From the sequence record MW269952.1: a DNA stretch of 64,000 nucleotides. One strand, 5' to 3'. The stretch is from Escherichia phage P479. Position 1 is the first letter of the stretch. Each line of letters begins with the position of its first letter. The notes beneath the pieces were generated by a model that was given only the letters and a program-made list of their open reading frames with translations, did no database searches and was not told the DNA's origin. Made by a program: the position numbers and the translations under genes. Shown one piece after another: positions 19,971 through 64,000 of this stretch.

Positions 19971-20138
19971 TGTCAGATAAGATTTGTGTTGTCTGTAAAA
20001 CTCCAATCGATTCTGCATTGGTTGTGGATACAGACCAAGGTCCGGTGCATCCGGGCGCCTGTTATAATTATGTTCAGAGTTTGCCAGTTACGGAAAATAC
20101 AGAAGAGCAACTGAACGAGACCCAACTTTTAATTTAGC
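19971..20138 (+). CDS. small Cys-containing protein, 55 aa (uvsY.-2 position)
   Basis: ATG at 19971 with RBS gaggag; MSDKICVVCKTPIDS...HPGACYNY suggests a possible CxxC...C metal site. Below the ORF-track cutoff. Confidence 0.35.
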
Positions 20139-29612: not shown

Positions 29613-30431
29613 TTAAGAAATTCGTGATGCTGCGAGAGCAGACAAGTCCGCGAAGGACAGGGTAGGCTTGGCGCCTTTTTCTTCAACTGCTTCTGAAATG
29701 TAATTCAGTGCCGCAGCATCGTCTACATTTTTATTTATAGCGGCTTCGGTGATTGGTTTGTCGGTGGGTTCTACCTGACCTTTAACCATTTCAACGATAG
29801 CGCCAATTTTGGTACCGAATGCATCAGAGTATTCCATGCCTTCTACCAGAGAACCAACTTTTTCTTTCTGAGATTCAGTCAGGTCTTTAGTTGCTTCAGT
29901 CAACGCAACTTCACGTTGGACATAATTGATATAAGCATCACGCTTAGAAACTTCTTCGAACAGGCTAGCGGTTTCTTCTTTCTGTTCAGCCAGTTCTTCC
30001 TGCATTTCTGCGACAACATCGACAGATTCTTCCGGAACAACAACGTTGTGCTCAACGAACAGTTCTTTCATGCCGGTGAACATGGATTCGAACAGGTCAG
30101 CTTTAATGCCACGGTCGACAGCCAGTTTATTTTCAGCAAGCCATTCTTTAGCAACGTGGTCCAGGAATTTAGCTGCAGATTCTTTCAGTTTTTTCTCTGC
30201 TTTTTCGTCGGATTCTTCTTTATTCTTTTCGACTTCTTCTTCAGCTTTTTCAGCGATGGCGTGAATGTGAGATTCTGCCAGTTTGATGGCGTGTTGCTTG
30301 ACGGTAGCTTCGAATACAGTGCCGAAGGTAGCTTTCGCTTCCGGGGACAAATTAACTGATTCGAAAATACTATCGAGAGCAACGGAAGCATCGATATTCT
30401 GAGCTTCGGCAATGAGTTGTTCTTTAAGCAT
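29613..30431 (-). CDS. 22: prohead core scaffold protein gp22
   Basis: 272 aa; acidic, coiled-coil-like composition; synteny. Confidence 0.85.
   Translation of the reverse strand: MLKEQLIAEAQNIDASVALDSIFESVNLSPEAKATFGTVFEATVKQHAIKLAESHIHAIAEKAEEEVEKNKEESDEKAEKKLKESAAKFLDHVAKEWLAENKLAVDRGIKADLFESMFTGMKELFVEHNVVVPEESVDVVAEMQEELAEQKEETASLFEEVSKRDAYINYVQREVALTEATKDLTESQKEKVGSLVEGMEYSDAFGTKIGAIVEMVKGQVEPTDKPITEAAINKNVDDAAALNYISEAVEEKGAKPTLSFADLSALAASRIS
29732..29739 (-). promoter_or_regulatory. candidate late promoter for gene 23 inside the 3' end of gene 22
   Basis: + strand tatttata = TATAAATA on -, about 140 nt upstream of the gene 23 ATG. Confidence 0.35.
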
Positions 30432-30460
30432 TTTGTAGTCCTGTTGTTAAGATATACATT

Positions 30461-30468
30461 TATTTATA
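30461..30468 (-). promoter_or_regulatory. T4-type late promoter for gene 22
   Basis: TATAAATA on -, 30 nt upstream of the gene 22 ATG, overlapping the gene 21 stop. Confidence 0.55.
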
Positions 30469-31102
30469 ACGTCTTTAAAGCCTCTGCGAGAGCCATAAAG
30501 GCGTCATCGGCACTGGTATCGGCAACAGCCGTTTGTGATTCTGTAATCTGCTTTGGTTTGACCCAAGCGTCCGGAGCACTTGGCCCCCATACTGCGTCTA
30601 CTCCAACCGTCAATTTAAAACCTTCATTAACGATGCTATAACCTTTTGCTGATTTAGTCAGGGAACCAAGTCCACGACTAGATACACCAGGAATCCAACC
30701 TGCTCTTATATTCGCAGCAAGTTTATCACCTGGGCCATGGTCGCCTTCGATAATACGAGCGCGGCCATATACATCATTCCCTTTCCACCACATTTCCTCG
30801 ATAATAATTGCCGCCTGCATAGGGTCAACGTTTGCACGAGGTGGATGGTTTAATTCTCCAAGAGACTGCTTGGTTTCAACCTGTTCGGCGATATAGTCCG
30901 CAACGGCTTTTTCCAAAATATGTTTAGGATAAAGTCGTTTATTACGGTTAACAACTTCAGCTTGTAGGAAAATACCTTCAATATAAAGTCCTGGCTTTAA
31001 ACCGCTGCTGGAACCATCATGAGATTCCAACATCGGTACACCATCTTTAATTTCGCCCGGTTGACCCCAGTGTTCGATTAGTAACTCTGGTTTCTGTTCC
31101 AT
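30464..31102 (-). CDS. 21: prohead protease gp21
   Basis: 212 aa (T4 gp21 212 aa); synteny. Confidence 0.85.
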   Translation of the reverse strand: MEQKPELLIEHWGQPGEIKDGVPMLESHDGSSSGLKPGLYIEGIFLQAEVVNRNKRLYPKHILEKAVADYIAEQVETKQSLGELNHPPRANVDPMQAAIIIEEMWWKGNDVYGRARIIEGDHGPGDKLAANIRAGWIPGVSSRGLGSLTKSAKGYSIVNEGFKLTVGVDAVWGPSAPDAWVKPKQITESQTAVADTSADDAFMALAEALKTL

Positions 31103-31530
31103 TAATCAAGTCCGAATGCTTTACGCTTAGCTCGAGCTTTTTTGCGCTTGCGCTCTGCTCTGATTTGCGTAGATGGGTTTGCTCTTTTCGTTTTAGTAGC
31201 CAGACGGGCAATTTGACGACGTTTAGCTTTAGAAAGACCAGTTGTTTGGAAAGCGTTACGCTTACGAGTAGCTCGGTCTTTTGTGCGGGTTAACTCACCG
31301 CGAGACGATACATGTTTAACGATAAATTCGTTAAGCTGAACACCTTCATTCAGAGCGCCGATAACCGTTGCTTTTTCGTATTCACCGGCTGCAAACATGT
31401 TTTCTACAATAATATTTATATCGTCTTTTTCTAAGGCTTCAGATAATGAATCAAATTGTCCCTGAGCTTCTTCGGAAACACTTTCGATGTTTTCAAGAGT
31501 TAATTCGTAATCATCAGGGATAATAAACAT
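31102..31530 (-). CDS. 68: prohead core protein gp68
   Basis: 142 aa; synteny between 67 and 21. Confidence 0.75.
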
Positions 31531-31784
31531 TATTCATCGTCCTCATCTTCATCGTCGTCGCCTTCGTCAGCGTCATCAGATTCTTTTTTGTCTTTCTTTT
31601 CTGCTTTACCGTCATCTTCATCTTCATCATCTTTAGGCTCTTCGCCTTCAATCATGATGGAACGTGCAATTTCAATCTTACGTTCTTCAATCAAACTACC
31701 GCATACTGGGCCAATGTTTTCAGCAAAATATTTGCGAACGGCTACGAGGTCGTTTGATTTAATGGCTTCAAATAAATCATCCAT
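31530..31784 (-). CDS. 67: prohead core protein gp67
   Basis: 84 aa with a highly acidic C-terminus; synteny. Confidence 0.75.
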
Positions 31785-56364: not shown

Positions 56365-56996
56365 AATGCCTTCCTCTGTTTTAAAATATTTTTAACTATG
56401 GAAATATTATGCTCACATATATTTCGATTGAATTGGTAAAAATCAAATCCTAACTTTTTAATATGTCGAGACACATAACGGGTTTCAACCGACGTTGGTA
56501 TAAACCCCATGTTCTTAGTTATTGTCTGCTCATTTTCAAAATGCTTTTTAAGCTTATCAGAAAGAATCTTCTTTTTCTCTTCTGAACATTTTTTGCCATA
56601 ATTTGGTGCATTTACTCCATGCTGGTCTCGCTTTTTTCCATACATGGGATTATTTTTACCTGAGTTATTTGCACTCATAATATCTTTAGTTTTCTGGCTA
56701 TGTTTTCGACCTTTAAAGTTATCATGTTTTAAAAATCCACCGGAGCCGCCTGGTTTTAAATTGTATGAGTTTTCATTAAGAACAACAAGTTCCTTTTCAA
56801 GTTCATACATTTCTTGTTTGGAATCAACAAATTTTAATATTTCTTTTTTGAAATTTTCAATGCCATATTTTAGTATGGCACGTTTAATTAATTTACCTGA
56901 GCCCATATATCCATCATCCATATTTGATGTACTATGCGCCCCGATATAAAATTTGCCGTTAATATTATTGGTTATTTTATATACATAATAAAACAT
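56361..56996 (-). CDS. GIY-YIG homing endonuclease (Seg-like) inserted between genes 53 and 5
   Basis: N-terminus YYVYKITNNINGKFYIGAHS is a GIY-YIG motif; NUMOD3-like repeats (NPMYGKK, NAPNYGKK); start and stop overlap the neighbouring genes. Confidence 0.75.
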   Translation of the reverse strand: MFYYVYKITNNINGKFYIGAHSTSNMDDGYMGSGKLIKRAILKYGIENFKKEILKFVDSKQEMYELEKELVVLNENSYNLKPGGSGGFLKHDNFKGRKHSQKTKDIMSANNSGKNNPMYGKKRDQHGVNAPNYGKKCSEEKKKILSDKLKKHFENEQTITKNMGFIPTSVETRYVSRHIKKLGFDFYQFNRNICEHNISIVKNILKQRKAL

Positions 56997-57598
56997 TAGA
57001 GTGCCTTTTCCATTTCACGGATTAATGCCGAAATAAATGATTCGATATCATTAGGGTCGATTATCTTTATTTCTCGTTTATATTCATTTTTACGAATAGC
57101 ATCTTCATAGATATCTACTGCAGCTAATGGACCTTCATATTGTGGGTACAATTTATTCTTATCACCTTTATCATACCAGGTGTACGGATTATCAGGATAA
57201 GAAACAAGATTCCAGAATTTTTCACCATCTTCATTTACATGATAAAGAACCTGATTACCACCTATATTCGAATAGCGTTGAATTGATGCCTGATACGATG
57301 ATTCTTGTGAACATATCCAACCATAATACGGGTCATAGATATCATTAAGCATAAGGAGAACCCAATAGAGTTGAGTATTACCATAGAGCTGATATGCAAG
57401 TTCTTCAGGTCTTGGAGCTCCAGCGATGTAATATGTTTTCGGTGTATAATTAACCGCAACCTTATCAAAATAGGCGCGATAGTTTCTGAAGATGTCAGTC
57501 ATTGGGATGCTTAAGACGTCTTCTTTCGTTAATGATGCCGAGTTTTTTCTGATTGTTTTAGCATCATAATCAATTGGGTTAAAAAATGAAAAAAGCAT
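56996..57598 (-). CDS. 53: baseplate wedge protein gp53
   Basis: Start at the internal ATG (MLFSFFNPIDYDAKT...) matching the recalled T4 gp53 N-terminus. Confidence 0.8.
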   Translation of the reverse strand: MLFSFFNPIDYDAKTIRKNSASLTKEDVLSIPMTDIFRNYRAYFDKVAVNYTPKTYYIAGAPRPEELAYQLYGNTQLYWVLLMLNDIYDPYYGWICSQESSYQASIQRYSNIGGNQVLYHVNEDGEKFWNLVSYPDNPYTWYDKGDKNKLYPQYEGPLAAVDIYEDAIRKNEYKREIKIIDPNDIESFISALIREMEKAL

Positions 57599-57610
57599 AA
57601 AGCCTCCATT

Positions 57611-57618
57611 TATAAATA
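57611..57618 (+). promoter_or_regulatory. T4-type late promoter for gene 4
   Basis: tataaata 28 nt upstream of the gene 4 ATG, with RBS aggagg. Confidence 0.55.
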
Positions 57619-57646
57619 AGTATATCAATATTTATTAGGAGGCTAT

Positions 57647-58099
57647 ATGGCATACTCCGGGAAATGGCAACCTAAAAACGTTGCAAAGTACAAAGGAGAC
57701 TGGAAGAAAATTACCTACAGGTCAAACTGGGAAAAATTTGTATTTAACTGGTTGGATAATCATCCAGATGTGGTGCAATGGGGGTCAGAGACCGTTATCA
57801 TTCCATATTTTAGTAATGCGGATGGTAAAAAACGCAGGTATTACATGGATATGTGGGTAAAATTTTCAAATGGTCAACAATTTTTCTTTGAGGTTAAACC
57901 CAAAAAGGAAACAAGACCTCCAGCAAAACCAGTTAATACGACCGCTGCGAGCAAGAAGAGATTTATGAACGAAATGTATGTTTGGGCTGTTAATTCGGAT
58001 AAATGGAAAGCCGCTCAAGCTGTAGCTGATAAAATGGGCATCCAATTTAGATTGATTACTGAAGATGCACTTAGGAAAATGGGTTATAAGGGTTTATAA
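57647..58099 (+). CDS. 4: head completion protein gp4
   Basis: 150 aa; MAYSGKWQPKNVAKYKGDWKKITYRSNWEKF... matches recalled T4 gp4; divergent from gene 53 as in T4. Confidence 0.75.
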   Translation: MAYSGKWQPKNVAKYKGDWKKITYRSNWEKFVFNWLDNHPDVVQWGSETVIIPYFSNADGKKRRYYMDMWVKFSNGQQFFFEVKPKKETRPPAKPVNTTAASKKRFMNEMYVWAVNSDKWKAAQAVADKMGIQFRLITEDALRKMGYKGL

Positions 58100-60911: not shown

Positions 60912-61584
60912 AATTAATTGCGATTGTGGGTAAAAAACGCAGTGGTAAAGATACGACTGCTGATTATGTTATTAGTCAAAACGGAACAAAGTGGCAGCTT
61001 GCAGGTCCGATTAAAGAAGCGCTTTATAAAGCGTGGATTCGTCAAGACCTGCCACACAATTTGACCCTGGAAAATTTTGATGGACAAGGTTACGACCGTG
61101 AAAAAACCTTAATAATGAACAACACCGAAGCTTATATTCTTCTGGTTGATGCTCTTGAATGGTTGAAACAACAATACAATCTTGACCTTCCGAATCCGGA
61201 TATGGTTCGTAAAATTATTGAATTTCACACACTAAATAATGTTGAGCCCTGGACAGTTAGACGTTTCATGCAGACCCTTGGAACTGATATTGTTTGTACA
61301 GAGTTCGACAGCATGTTTTGGATTAAAACTTTTGCCTGCGACTATCTTGACAACCTCTATTCTGGATATAAATATTACGTTGTCCCAGATGTTCGCCAAA
61401 AGAACGAACTTGATTCGCTTCGGGCGATGGGTGCTACAATAATCTTTGTAGAACGCGATGAAGCAAATCATTCTACTGATACACACATTACGGAAGCTGG
61501 ACTTCCACCACTAGCTAGTGACATTGTTATTAAAAACGATGGCACACTCGAAGAACTTTTTGATAAAATTAATAAGGTAATATA

Positions 61585-61585
<1 letters not shown>
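60908..61585 (+). CDS. 1: deoxynucleoside monophosphate kinase gp1
   Basis: MKLIAIVGKKRSGKDTTADYV... P-loop; ...VPDVRQKNELDSLRAMGATIIFV...THITEAGLP... matches recalled T4 gp1. Confidence 0.85.
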
Positions 61586-62276
<691 letters not shown>

Positions 62277-62315
62277 TGTACAAATGAGTGTAGGTGCAGT
62301 ATTATGTTCCTACAC
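62277..62315 (+). promoter_or_regulatory. promoter-containing stem-loop cassette (TGTACA, 17 nt, TATTAT; stem gtgtagg/cctacac)
   Basis: -35-like tgtaca 62277-62282, -10-like tattat 62300-62305 in the loop of a 7-bp stem (62288-62294 / 62309-62315). Confidence 0.5.
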
Positions 62316-62336
62316 CAACGAACAAACGGAGTTAAT

Positions 62337-62669
62337 ATGAACATCAAAACTTACAACGAGTTTTTAGCCGAATCCGCCATCAATGAGACCAAATCAATTG
62401 ATGATAGTGAAGGCTCTCTGAAATTTGGTTTAACCAAAAATGCAGATGGTGTTTTCTTTCAGATTGGTAATGAACGTTTTCAAACGTCCAAATATTCCAA
62501 AGCTGCAGTTGAAGCTGTCCTGAAATCTGGTGGCAAGTGGAAAGGCAAAGAAGGTACTAAAGAAATTGGTATCGCTGTTGACGGTGGTATGGCTTATTTT
62601 AAAATTGGCGATGAACAATTTATTATGTCTGCTCGCGGACGTAAAGAACTGGCAAAACTTTATAAATAA
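62337..62669 (+). CDS. internal-protein-like small protein 1 (CTS-like N-terminus MNIKTYNEFLAE)
   Basis: Internal ATG with RBS ggag; N-terminus fits the T4 capsid targeting sequence pattern ending in a hydrophobic-x-E cleavage motif; internal repeat FFQIGNERF / YFKIGDEQF. Confidence 0.55.
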   Translation: MNIKTYNEFLAESAINETKSIDDSEGSLKFGLTKNADGVFFQIGNERFQTSKYSKAAVEAVLKSGGKWKGKEGTKEIGIAVDGGMAYFKIGDEQFIMSARGRKELAKLYK

Positions 62670-62677
62670 GGTTTCTT

Positions 62678-62950
62678 ATGAAAACTTTCAATGAATTTTT
62701 CAACGAGTCCCAACTGAACGAAGAAGTAAAAATTAGTAAAGCAGTCAAAGCTATGATTGACAATATCAATCACCTGTATAGCATTGACTTAACTGACCAT
62801 ATAACAATTGGCAACAAACGCAACTTTTTCGCGTTTGACATTTCAGAACTTGACCAGAACCAAATTAATAACATTGAGCGATTTGCCAATGACAAGGGTC
62901 TCCGTCATGAGACAGCTGGTTATAAAAAATATGCAATTTATCTAAAATAG
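62678..62950 (+). CDS. internal-protein-like small protein 2 (CTS-like N-terminus MKTFNEFFNE)
   Basis: ORF track, 90 aa; CTS-like N-terminus. Confidence 0.55.
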   Translation: MKTFNEFFNESQLNEEVKISKAVKAMIDNINHLYSIDLTDHITIGNKRNFFAFDISELDQNQINNIERFANDKGLRHETAGYKKYAIYLK

Positions 62951-62958
62951 GATTTCAA

Positions 62959-63258
62959 ATGCAAACTTTTCATGAATTTTTGGTAGAAAACAATTACCTG
63001 GCAGAAGCAAAAACCTGGCCTCTGGGTCTTCAGAAGAAAAACACCTACAAATGGGTTGACTTCAAAGGTAAAGGCGACGCTGAAGACTTTGACCAGCTAC
63101 GCAAAAATGGTTATACCTTCCTTGACTCCAACTATAACAAAATTACCTCTTTTAGTCAGAAGTCAAGCATTGCCTTCATTGAAACTGGTAAGAACTCTCC
63201 TAAAGATATTTCTGACGACTTCGCCGCTTATGGTGTAATTCGTGGTTCAAAAATGTAA
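62959..63258 (+). CDS. internal-protein-like small protein 3 (CTS-like N-terminus MQTFHEFLVE)
   Basis: ORF track, 99 aa; CTS-like N-terminus. Confidence 0.55.
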   Translation: MQTFHEFLVENNYLAEAKTWPLGLQKKNTYKWVDFKGKGDAEDFDQLRKNGYTFLDSNYNKITSFSQKSSIAFIETGKNSPKDISDDFAAYGVIRGSKM

Positions 63259-63266
63259 AAATGTAA

Positions 63267-63304
63267 TGTACACGATGGGATAGTTGCAGTATAATTATCC
63301 CATC
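63267..63304 (+). promoter_or_regulatory. promoter-containing stem-loop cassette (TGTACA, 17 nt, TATAAT; stem gatgggata/tatcccatc)
   Basis: 9-bp perfect stem 63274-63282 / 63296-63304 with loop gttgcagTATAAT. Confidence 0.55.
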
Positions 63305-63321
63305 AACTACTGGAGCTACTA

Positions 63322-63600
63322 ATGAAAACTTATCAAGAATTTATTAACGAATCAATTAATCACCCGGATATGCTGGAAGACCTGAAAGGACATCTGATGG
63401 TTAAGGCCCGACCGGTTGATGGTGGCGCATTTGAGTTGTTTCTTGTTAAAGGCGAAAACGGTCCTGATAACAAGAAAGTTTCAGCAATGATGTTGACTAA
63501 AGGTTACAAAGTCAGTTCTTCCTGGAATGCTCCATTCACTTACGCGGTAAGCCCTCGTGAACTGAAAAAAGTTAAAGCTGGACAATATACAAAAATTTAG
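63322..63600 (+). CDS. internal-protein-like small protein 4 (CTS-like N-terminus MKTYQEFINE)
   Basis: ORF track, 92 aa; first ten residues nearly identical to the recalled T4 CTS MKTYQEFIAE; RBS ggag. Confidence 0.6.
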   Translation: MKTYQEFINESINHPDMLEDLKGHLMVKARPVDGGAFELFLVKGENGPDNKKVSAMMLTKGYKVSSSWNAPFTYAVSPRELKKVKAGQYTKI

Positions 63601-63601
63601 T

Positions 63602-63639
63602 GTACGTGATGGGATAGTTGCAGTATGATTATCCCATCA
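63602..63639 (+). promoter_or_regulatory. promoter-containing stem-loop cassette (TGTACG, 17 nt, TATGAT), third copy
   Basis: Same 9-bp stem (63609-63617 / 63631-63639) and loop gttgcagtatgat as the 63267 copy. Confidence 0.5.
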
Positions 63640-63657
63640 ACTACTGAGGAGAATAAA

Positions 63658-63843
63658 ATGAAACGTTGTGAATTAATTAGAAATGCTACTGCCCTTGTTG
63701 CTGTTACCGCTTTTGGTTTTAGCATGTTTGCTGGCTTTATGTTGAATATGCTTTCAACTTCTGAGAATATAATCTCTTTAGTAGTTGCATTTTTAATTGG
63801 TTCAATCTCTTTCGTTATGGATAAAATCTCCAAAGGTGAGTAA
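63658..63843 (+). CDS. small predicted membrane protein (about 61 aa, two hydrophobic segments)
   Basis: Internal ATG with RBS gaggag; hydrophobic stretches ALVAVTAFGFSMFAGFML and IISLVVAFLIGSISFV. Confidence 0.45.
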   Translation: MKRCELIRNATALVAVTAFGFSMFAGFMLNMLSTSENIISLVVAFLIGSISFVMDKISKGE

Positions 63844-63844
63844 A

Positions 63845-64000
63845 ATGTATAAAGTGTATGCGGATTATCAGGCAAATCCATCTGAAAAACCAGATTGTCA
63901 AATTGGGTGGGCGCATGACACCCTGCTTGAAGCGGTAAATGAAGCACAGAAATTAGGATATAGTTATGTAGATATTGTTCAACCTAGTGGAACAGTTATT
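63845..64000 (+). CDS. hypothetical protein, 5' part (continues beyond the right window edge)
   Basis: ATG at 63845; open to the end of the window (MYKVYADYQANPSEKPDCQIGW...). Confidence 0.35.
   Translation, partial: MYKVYADYQANPSEKPDCQIGWAHDTLLEAVNEAQKLGYSYVDIVQPSGTVI

Follow-up and report, generated by a model that had tools for sequence, protein, structure and literature searches.

Why do four adjacent small genes of a T4-like phage begin almost alike and then diverge? The question is raised by a locus in a 64,000-nucleotide stretch of Escherichia phage P479 (sequence record MW269952.1; "the window" denotes this stretch at its full length), where four consecutive open reading frames (ORFs) lie in tandem between the genes 57B and trna.4. 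Each carries at its N-terminus a decapeptide resembling the capsid targeting sequence (CTS) of the T4 internal proteins (IPs). The CTS was reportedly defined by Mullaney and Black in 1996. The reading favored here, which we regard as probable, is that the array codes for four internal, injected proteins of a T4-like phage at a hypervariable locus equivalent to that of T4 ipI, with anti-defence as their likeliest role. Injected proteins act ahead of any phage gene expression and thus decide survival against first-line host defences. To our knowledge, only three of them, T4 Ip1, Ip2 and Ip3, have known targets.

Four tagged genes in tandem

The preliminary description of this DNA, made from its letters, had placed four plus-strand ORFs at the locus. 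They are present as described, with the N-termini MNIKTYNEFLAE, MKTFNEFFNE, MQTFHEFLVE and MKTYQEFINE:

ORF1, 62337..62669, plus strand: 110 residues; tag MN-IKTYNEFLAE; second hydrophobic-x-Glu site INE17; phrog_3966, function unknown
ORF2 (Ip9), 62678..62950, plus strand: 90 residues; tag MKTFNEFFNE; second site LNE15
ORF3, 62959..63258, plus strand: 99 residues; tag MQTFHEFLVE; second site LAE16
ORF4, 63322..63600, plus strand: 92 residues; tag MKTYQEFINE; possible second site MLE19; phrog_15565, function unknown

Translation of the 64 kb in all six frames yields exactly four instances of the motif [KQ]T[YF]xEF, one at each of these N-termini; first-order Markov resamplings of the window gave a mean of 0.125 occurrences and a maximum of 1. 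With a looser tag pattern, the one false hit in the window falls on an internal Met of gp27 (16795, minus strand). Shine-Dalgarno sequences precede all four starts. Between ORF1 to ORF3 and their counterparts in close relatives, synonymous changes affect 9-22 codons and non-synonymous ones 1-6, and this large excess of the former indicates real genes under purifying selection. Beyond the tags the bodies do diverge, as had been claimed: without the first 10 residues, no BLASTP similarity was detected among them or to T4 IPI, IPII and IPIII (seven-sequence database; best E 0.08-0.6).

The composition of the tags agrees with what is known of the T4 decapeptide. Experiments on IPIII have assigned positions 4 and 7 to targeting and positions 8 and 10 to cleavage, and Asp at position 10 blocked cleavage with packaging retained (PMC9026906). 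All four array tags, counted from Ile3 in ORF1, keep the targeting determinants, with an aromatic residue (Tyr or Phe) in fourth place and Phe in seventh. They also keep the cleavage residues, position 8 (P3) being hydrophobic and position 10 (P1) a Glu, so that the predicted sites for the gp21 protease are LAE, FNE, LVE and INE. The ORF4 tag matches that of T4 IPII and IPIII at 9 of the 10 positions. In ORF2 the P3 residue is Phe rather than Ile or Leu, and an LNE follows five residues further on; indeed, a second hydrophobic-x-Glu site lies 5-9 residues downstream of the tag in each of the four proteins. Masses of 8-10.7 kDa are predicted for the mature forms, of which three are basic (isoelectric point, pI, 9.1-9.9), the predicted pI of ORF2 being 6.8 if it is cut at Glu10 only. 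Depending on whether the cut falls at the first or the second site, the mature form would begin SAINET (10674 Da) or TKSIDD (10160 Da) in ORF1, SQLNEE (9301 Da) or EVKISK (8730 Da) in ORF2, NNYLAE (10114 Da) or AKTWPL (9409 Da) in ORF3, and SINHPD (9068 Da) or DLKGHL (8030 Da) in ORF4. ORF1 differs by the residues MN added ahead of its tag. In all 10 other clusters of ORF1 homologues the start is MKTY, and the replacement of that Met by Ile, together with a start two codons upstream, is confined to this lineage. Across ORF1 homologues that diverge by 50-70%, K4, T5, Y6, F9 and E12 are invariant.

The earlier statement that the T4 internal proteins carry MKTYQEFIAE holds for IPII and IPIII and fails for IPI, which starts with MKTFKEFTSTTTPVSTITE. 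Loss of these 19 residues agrees with the mature form of 76 residues given in PMC3012670. IPI has a hydrophobic-x-Glu at FKE6 and is cut after ITE19, which is comparable to the two-site pattern of the array proteins.

Genomic setting and proposed course of events

The last 2.5 kb of the window are 92-98% identical to the Gaprivervirus phages PSD2001, UPEC01, VR7, VR20 and SP18, and the source lineage is Gaprivervirus of the VR7/SP18-like type (Straboviridae, Tevenvirinae). The genes run in the order 4-2-3-1-57A-57B-[array]-trna.4-trna.3. That ipI maps next to 57B, as the preliminary description had stated, is borne out by synteny with VR7 and T4: in T4 the gap between 57B and trna.4 holds ipI as its single gene, and the array fills the same gap. 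Two ip loci are known, one from 57B to trna.4 and the other in the e/denV region, and the array occupies the former. The boundaries of the array and the head-assembly genes that bear upon it are as follows:

57B, left boundary, 61821..62276, plus strand: phosphodiesterase of the Acb1 family, directed against the cyclic oligonucleotide-based antiphage signaling system (anti-CBASS); Pfam PF23474 Acb1, E 1.5e-59; annotated 57B in VR7 and T4
trna.4 homologue, right boundary, 63658..63843, plus strand: phrog_1692, E 1.2e-32; synteny with VR7 and T4
gp21 prohead protease, the expected remover of the tag, 30467..31102, minus strand: tblastn with VR7 gp21, 98.6% over 212 residues
Prohead core genes 22, 21, 68 and 67, 29616..31784, minus strand: tblastn with VR7 proteins; the scaffold is thought to bind the tag

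Genes 20, 23, 24 and inh are also found within the window alongside gp21 and the core genes. Since 57B belongs to the Acb1 family, the candidate injected-protein locus adjoins a known counter-defence gene. In many records 57B is still labeled "RNA ligase" or "hypothetical".

For all four proteins we infer packaging, cleavage, injection and an anti-defence function, along the following lines. The precursors would be made from phage early-type promoters and probably by late read-through as well. The N-terminal decapeptide would bind the prohead scaffolding core, so that the protein is enclosed during head assembly, and gp21 would cut after the Glu of the hydrophobic-x-Glu motif (position 10; 12 in ORF1). 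A possible second gp21 cut 5-9 residues further on would leave a mature protein of about 8-10.7 kDa, to be expelled with the DNA at the next infection, ahead of any phage gene expression. Its most likely role would be to neutralize first-line host defences, each protein having a different target, as T4 Ip1, Ip2 and Ip3 have in three GmrSD enzymes. The locus itself would evolve by the swapping of cassettes, with promoter stem-loop (PeSL) repeats and the conserved tag-coding DNA as the homology for recombination.

Promoter elements and the build of the cassettes

The motif TGTAC-N13-TGCAGTATNAT, which combines the T4-type early-promoter consensus (as given in PMC4122927) with a stem-loop and has its -10 element inside the loop, is present in three copies in the 64 kb, against 0.1 expected, and all three lie at the array locus. 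The copies at 62277, 63267 and 63601 stand ahead of ORF1 to ORF3, ORF4 and trna.4, respectively. T4 ipI is likewise flanked by early-promoter consensus sites. The elements, together with a possible late promoter, are:

PeSL-type element 1, 62277..62317, plus strand: TGTACA-N17-TATTAT at 62277-62305; stem-loop at about 62285-62317; fold -14.8 kcal/mol, z -1.6
PeSL-type element 2 with the left copy of a 63-nt repeat, 63250..63312, plus strand: TGTACA-N17-TATAAT at 63267-63295; stem-loop at about 63274-63304; z -3.1
PeSL-type element 3 with the right copy of the 63-nt repeat, 63584..63646, plus strand: promoter-like TGTACG-N17-TATGAT at 63601-63629; stem-loop at about 63607-63639; z -4.5
TATAAATA, the T4 late-promoter consensus (perfect box), 62661..62668, plus strand: over the last ORF1 codons and stop, 10 nt before the start of ORF2

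The 63-nt direct repeat, whose copies are 87% identical, brackets ORF4. A shorter repeat of 37 nt, formed by the ribosome-binding site and the tag-coding DNA, is 65-81% identical between the array genes and could serve as a recombination substrate too. We infer recombination at these PeSL sites. A search of positions 61500-64000 against Rfam returned no RNA family.

Synthesis of the T4 internal proteins is heavy both early and late (PMC6071114). The putative late promoter TATAAATA arises from the codons TAT AAA TAA, which encode the end of a lineage-specific ORF1 C-terminus, LYK, and it is kept in close relatives. It lies too near ORF2 to allow for a leader and might therefore serve ORF3 instead. 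Past position 20000 this sequence recurs on the plus strand only twice more, ahead of gene 4 at 57611 and within gene 1 at 61367.

Cargo turnover among relatives

The preliminary description had regarded the shared tag with unrelated bodies as the mark of a cargo-swapping, hypervariable locus, and a comparison of 31 loci (those of VR7, UPEC01 and T4, and 28 taken from viral contigs with a 57B homologue) demonstrates this turnover directly. Between 57B and trna.4 there are 269 to 1686 bp, with 0-5 genes in them. Most of these genes start with a tag, and the bodies of the tagged ones form 13 families among which no similarity could be detected. Relatives whose 57B is 99% identical to that of the window differ by whole genes. 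VR7 and VR20 (L005) have an extra Ip6 after ORF4, and UPEC01 has an extra tagged ORF in that place; ORF4 is missing from one relative (L006) and from another (L007), and in the latter ORF3 too is replaced, by a different tagged gene. Both Ip5 and Ip6 are found in the gap among the relatives. In six loci (L009, L012, L013, L015, L016 and L018) an untagged ORF of 57-59 residues, beginning MESASSVAIEV or MEHGVSMNIEV, is located about 33 nt after 57B. A relationship of the Ip6 body to these untagged ORFs (58 residues) was considered and dropped, the match being 24% over 41 residues with E about 7e-4 in a tiny database.

The same cargo can be found at either of the ip loci: Salmonella phage STP4-a has its ORF1 homologue flanked by the endolysin gene and denV, and its ORF3 homologue after 57B. 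VR7 has its second ip locus beside denV (L034 16729-17649; VR7 56728-57648), composed of ip10, ORF127c and ip7, the last of which begins MLTYQEF; ORF127c is a paralogue of ORF3 (33% identical over the full length, E 1e-15). The VR7 genome contains nine tag-bearing ORFs altogether, five at the 57B locus, three at the denV locus, and gp61.1. The latter is a conserved protein of 54-55 residues whose gene adjoins the primase gene, outside both ip loci, and whose tag-like start is MKTFKEFIKE in T4 and MKTFKDFINE in VR7:

Gene 61.1, tag-like decapeptide: T4, L044 1967-2131; VR7, L038 17857-18024

ORF4 may have moved recently as a cassette. Compared with VR7, UPEC01 and VR20 it differs in 2 codons, both non-synonymously, while its neighbor genes show up to 22 synonymous differences from VR7 and VR20 (1-5 codons in the case of UPEC01). 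The few differences in ORF4 and the many in its neighbors suggest recent transfer and spread of the ORF4 cassette.

What the bodies are

Sequence searches of Pfam, NCBIfam and PDB gave no match above threshold for any of the four proteins, and neither sequence nor fold similarity to the GmrSD inhibitor IPI* was found. The search for described homologues nevertheless divided the array in two. ORF2 belongs to phrog_7673, "internal head protein" (E 1.7e-56); it is annotated in VR7 as "Ip9, similar to RB32 Ip9" and is present in 193 of 50,697 phage records. ORF3 belongs to phrog_2667, also "internal head protein" (E 2e-21), and its structure model is poor, too weak for a fold to be read. Described homologues thus exist for these two, while ORF1 and ORF4 fall into families of unknown function. 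The homologue families of the array proteins span several genera.

The structure model of ORF1 consists of two tandem beta4-alpha repeats arranged as a pseudo-dimer, a predicted Whirly/PUR-like fold. Most of the best-scoring matches in a fold search bind single-stranded nucleic acids, and a fold search of BFVD returned only the protein's own homologue. In the annotated records listed ORF1 is "hypothetical", except for one "profilin".

ORF4 is a lineage-restricted orphan in a PeSL-bracketed cassette. It occurs in 17 phage records, all at least 95% identical, and is "hypothetical" in every annotated row listed; among 5.8 billion proteins it forms a single 90% cluster. An exhaustive HMMER search of 1.84 billion representatives returned its own cluster and two long repetitive proteins only. 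The latter two were rejected as spurious; the one inspected matches via a repeat of about 25 residues.

That T-even internal proteins are diverse defence proteins with the CTS as their sole shared part is already described (PMC3012670, citing Repoila 1994), and the polymorphism of the ip locus is credited to Repoila et al. 1994 both there and in PMC12373910. The type of locus is therefore not novel, and ORF2 already bears the name Ip9. What is new here is the recognition of ORF1 and ORF4 as unannotated internal-protein candidates, together with the structural hint for ORF1.

The Ip9 body and a tag-like array in Kuttervirus

The body of Ip9 is found in three formats: a tagged small protein, an untagged early gene, and the C-terminal domain of a large carrier. 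In coliphage vB_Eco_AMO_3701M, which has 45 kb and no ip locus, a stand-alone, untagged protein of 72 residues matches Ip9 profile positions 20-90 (E 2.3e-25). In Kuttervirus aagejoakim (Ackermannviridae), residues 678-737 of the 755-residue gp085 match profile positions 16-75 (E 2.4e-8; pairwise E 2e-10). The genes in question are:

Untagged early-region ORF with an Ip9 body (profile match): L035 2504-2722 (PQ474795.1 39094-39312)
gp085 with a C-terminal Ip9 body: L036 473-2740 (NC_049503.1 74277-76544)
Kuttervirus three-gene tag-like array: L040 24277-27369 (NC_049503.1 74277-77369); L045 4642-7898 (MW021757.1 151641-154897); L043 1501-3888

gp085 and the next two genes start with MAIPSFLNFLEES, MKPFIEYFKEQ and MKGFPDFLKEA, and in the 150 kb of the aagejoakim genome the loose tag pattern matches these three adjacent genes only. 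The same phage has a T4-type module of portal, core, protease, scaffold and capsid, its protease being 36% identical to gp21. From residue 1 to about 654-680 the orthologues of gp085 share 77-83% identity; beyond that point their C-terminal domains are unrelated. The Sajous1 orthologues gp214, gp215 and gp216 yielded 196, 32 and 20 spectra, respectively, in liquid chromatography-tandem mass spectrometry of purified virions (PMC10892097, Table 6), and the presence in virions of Kuttervirus proteins with similar N-termini is counted in favor of packaging in the array. A similarity of ORF1 to the N-terminal region of gp085 beyond the tag was unsupported by profile comparison.

These observations suggest that a second phage family has a diverged version of the tag system, in which the cargo domain is C-terminal and polymorphic, a lead rather than a demonstration. 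A literature search found no paper linking "capsid targeting" with Ackermannviridae, nor any account of the Kuttervirus array, and a 2024 review of that family makes no mention of internal or injected proteins. A wider view may be formulated, in which the T4-type tag is a delivery system across families (Straboviridae and, in diverged form, Ackermannviridae), the bodies are portable counter-defence modules that move among the three formats, and at least one array protein acts in a way new for injected phage proteins; ORF1, given its predicted fold, might then be a binder of single-stranded nucleic acid instead of an inhibitor of type IV restriction. In this full extent we hold the view to be rather unlikely.

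Alternative explanations and points of doubt

One alternative to the favored reading is that the four proteins are packaged, but as DNA-associated proteins of a generic kind, with a part in charge balance, DNA condensation or ejection, and not as specific anti-defence effectors. The basic nature of three of the predicted mature forms is in keeping with this, as are the predicted fold of ORF1, most of whose best structural matches bind single-stranded nucleic acids, and the charge-balancing role long assigned to the T4 internal proteins (PMC6071114). A generic role nevertheless leaves unexplained why 13 mutually dissimilar body families should share one locus and why phages with 99% identical flanks should differ in the presence of whole genes. 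ORF2 would not be basic at all if cut only at Glu10, and all three T4 internal proteins proved to be specific inhibitors (PMC12373910), so that we consider a generic role decidedly unlikely. Alternatively, one or more of the proteins, with ORF1 and ORF2 the likeliest cases, may be early and cytoplasmic only, the tag being a relic retained as recombination homology or as a translation-initiation region. Early-promoter consensus sites drive all of the cassettes; ORF1 has lost its canonical start Met and gained two residues, ORF2 has its Phe at P3, and the Ip9 body exists as a stand-alone, untagged gene in a phage without an ip locus. Moreover, tagless IPIII supplied in the host cell still rescues infection (bioRxiv 10.1101/2022.04.14.488369). 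A relic would hardly be expected, though, to preserve the tag at the protein level over 50-70% divergence, as the five invariant residues of the ORF1 family do, and T4 internal proteins are made early yet packaged (PMC6071114). This explanation is thus very improbable. The last alternative, that the shared N-terminus is coincidental or that the ORFs are not genes, could appeal to their small size and to the lack of an ORF4 homologue outside its lineage; it is refuted by the four motifs against 0.125 expected, all of them at ORF starts with Shine-Dalgarno sequences, by the predominance of synonymous change in ORF1 to ORF3, and by homologue families across several genera.

The interpretation of the array as four internal, injected proteins is itself of uneven strength. 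That the four are tag-bearing, packaged proteins is its firmest part, and probable. That they are anti-defence effectors is judged somewhat better than even; this role is proposed because of the analogy with Ip1, Ip2 and Ip3, each of which inhibits a distinct GmrSD type IV restriction enzyme (Silas 2025; PMC3012670 and PMC12373910). That GmrSD-type enzymes are their targets is possible but doubtful. Several points weigh against the interpretation. A literature search found no virion proteome, cleavage or injection data for the four proteins or for any Gaprivervirus. The two extra residues in front of the putative ORF1 tag and the Phe in place of Ile or Leu at P3 of ORF2 are departures from the T4 pattern. 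At least ten other ip genes are known, and ten unspecified ip genes other than those of Ip1, Ip2 and Ip3 gave no inhibition when set against new GmrSD variants (PMC12373910). In addition, tblastn searches of the complete VR7 genome with T4 gp42 dCMP (deoxycytidine monophosphate) hydroxymethylase and with beta-glucosyltransferase gave nothing at E 1e-3 or better. VR7 does have alc, denA, denB and gene 56, and at the position of gene 42 there is an ORF of 167 residues with no Pfam match. The lack of these matches implies that the DNA of the lineage may not be the glucosyl-hydroxymethylcytosine (glucosyl-hmC) DNA attacked by GmrSD; the cytosine modification of the lineage may differ from that of T4, and GmrSD may not be the relevant enemy.

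Although the principle is not new, the value of the array lies in its candidates: a Whirly/PUR-like ORF1, a lineage-restricted orphan in ORF4, and the widespread Ip9 body. They amount to four further candidates with clean predictions of their mature forms, suitable for screens against the defence systems of wild E. coli and Shigella, and may be of use in engineering the host range of T4-like phages meant for therapy. An added return is the hint that Ackermannviridae use the same logic of tagging.

Comparison with known systems

The closest known system is that of T4 IPI, IPII and IPIII. The array shares with it the ipI locus between 57B and trna.4, the logic of the decapeptide, including positions 4, 7, 8 and 10, the protease and scaffold genes in the genome, a similar protein size, and cassettes driven by early promoters. 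It differs in that its bodies have no detectable sequence similarity to the T4 proteins, in that four genes stand in tandem where T4 has one, and in the two-residue N-terminal extension of ORF1; the lineage may also lack the glucosyl-hmC DNA of T4. Other T-even phages have polymorphic ip genes (Ip5 to Ip12, among others) that represent the same phenomenon, and ORF2, as Ip9, is one of them, yet ORF1 and ORF4 are neither named nor annotated as internal proteins in the records listed.

The PeSL cassettes of T4-type phages (PMC2839356, PMC4122927) offer a model for the build of the locus. In them, too, variable genes of a hyperplastic region are bordered by an early-promoter consensus set in a stem-loop, and direct repeats enclose a gene that some close relatives have and others lack. 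The variant found in the array, TGTAC-N13-TGCAGTATNAT with the stem GATGGGATA/TATCCCATC, is specific to its lineage. The DarA, DarB and Hdf proteins of phage P1 (PMC12810830) are likewise loaded into the head, injected, and protective of the incoming DNA, but they are unrelated proteins without a T4-type N-terminal tag. In Kuttervirus gp085, finally, the variable domain is the C-terminus of a conserved, packaged carrier, whereas in the array the constant part is an N-terminal tag on free-standing small proteins.

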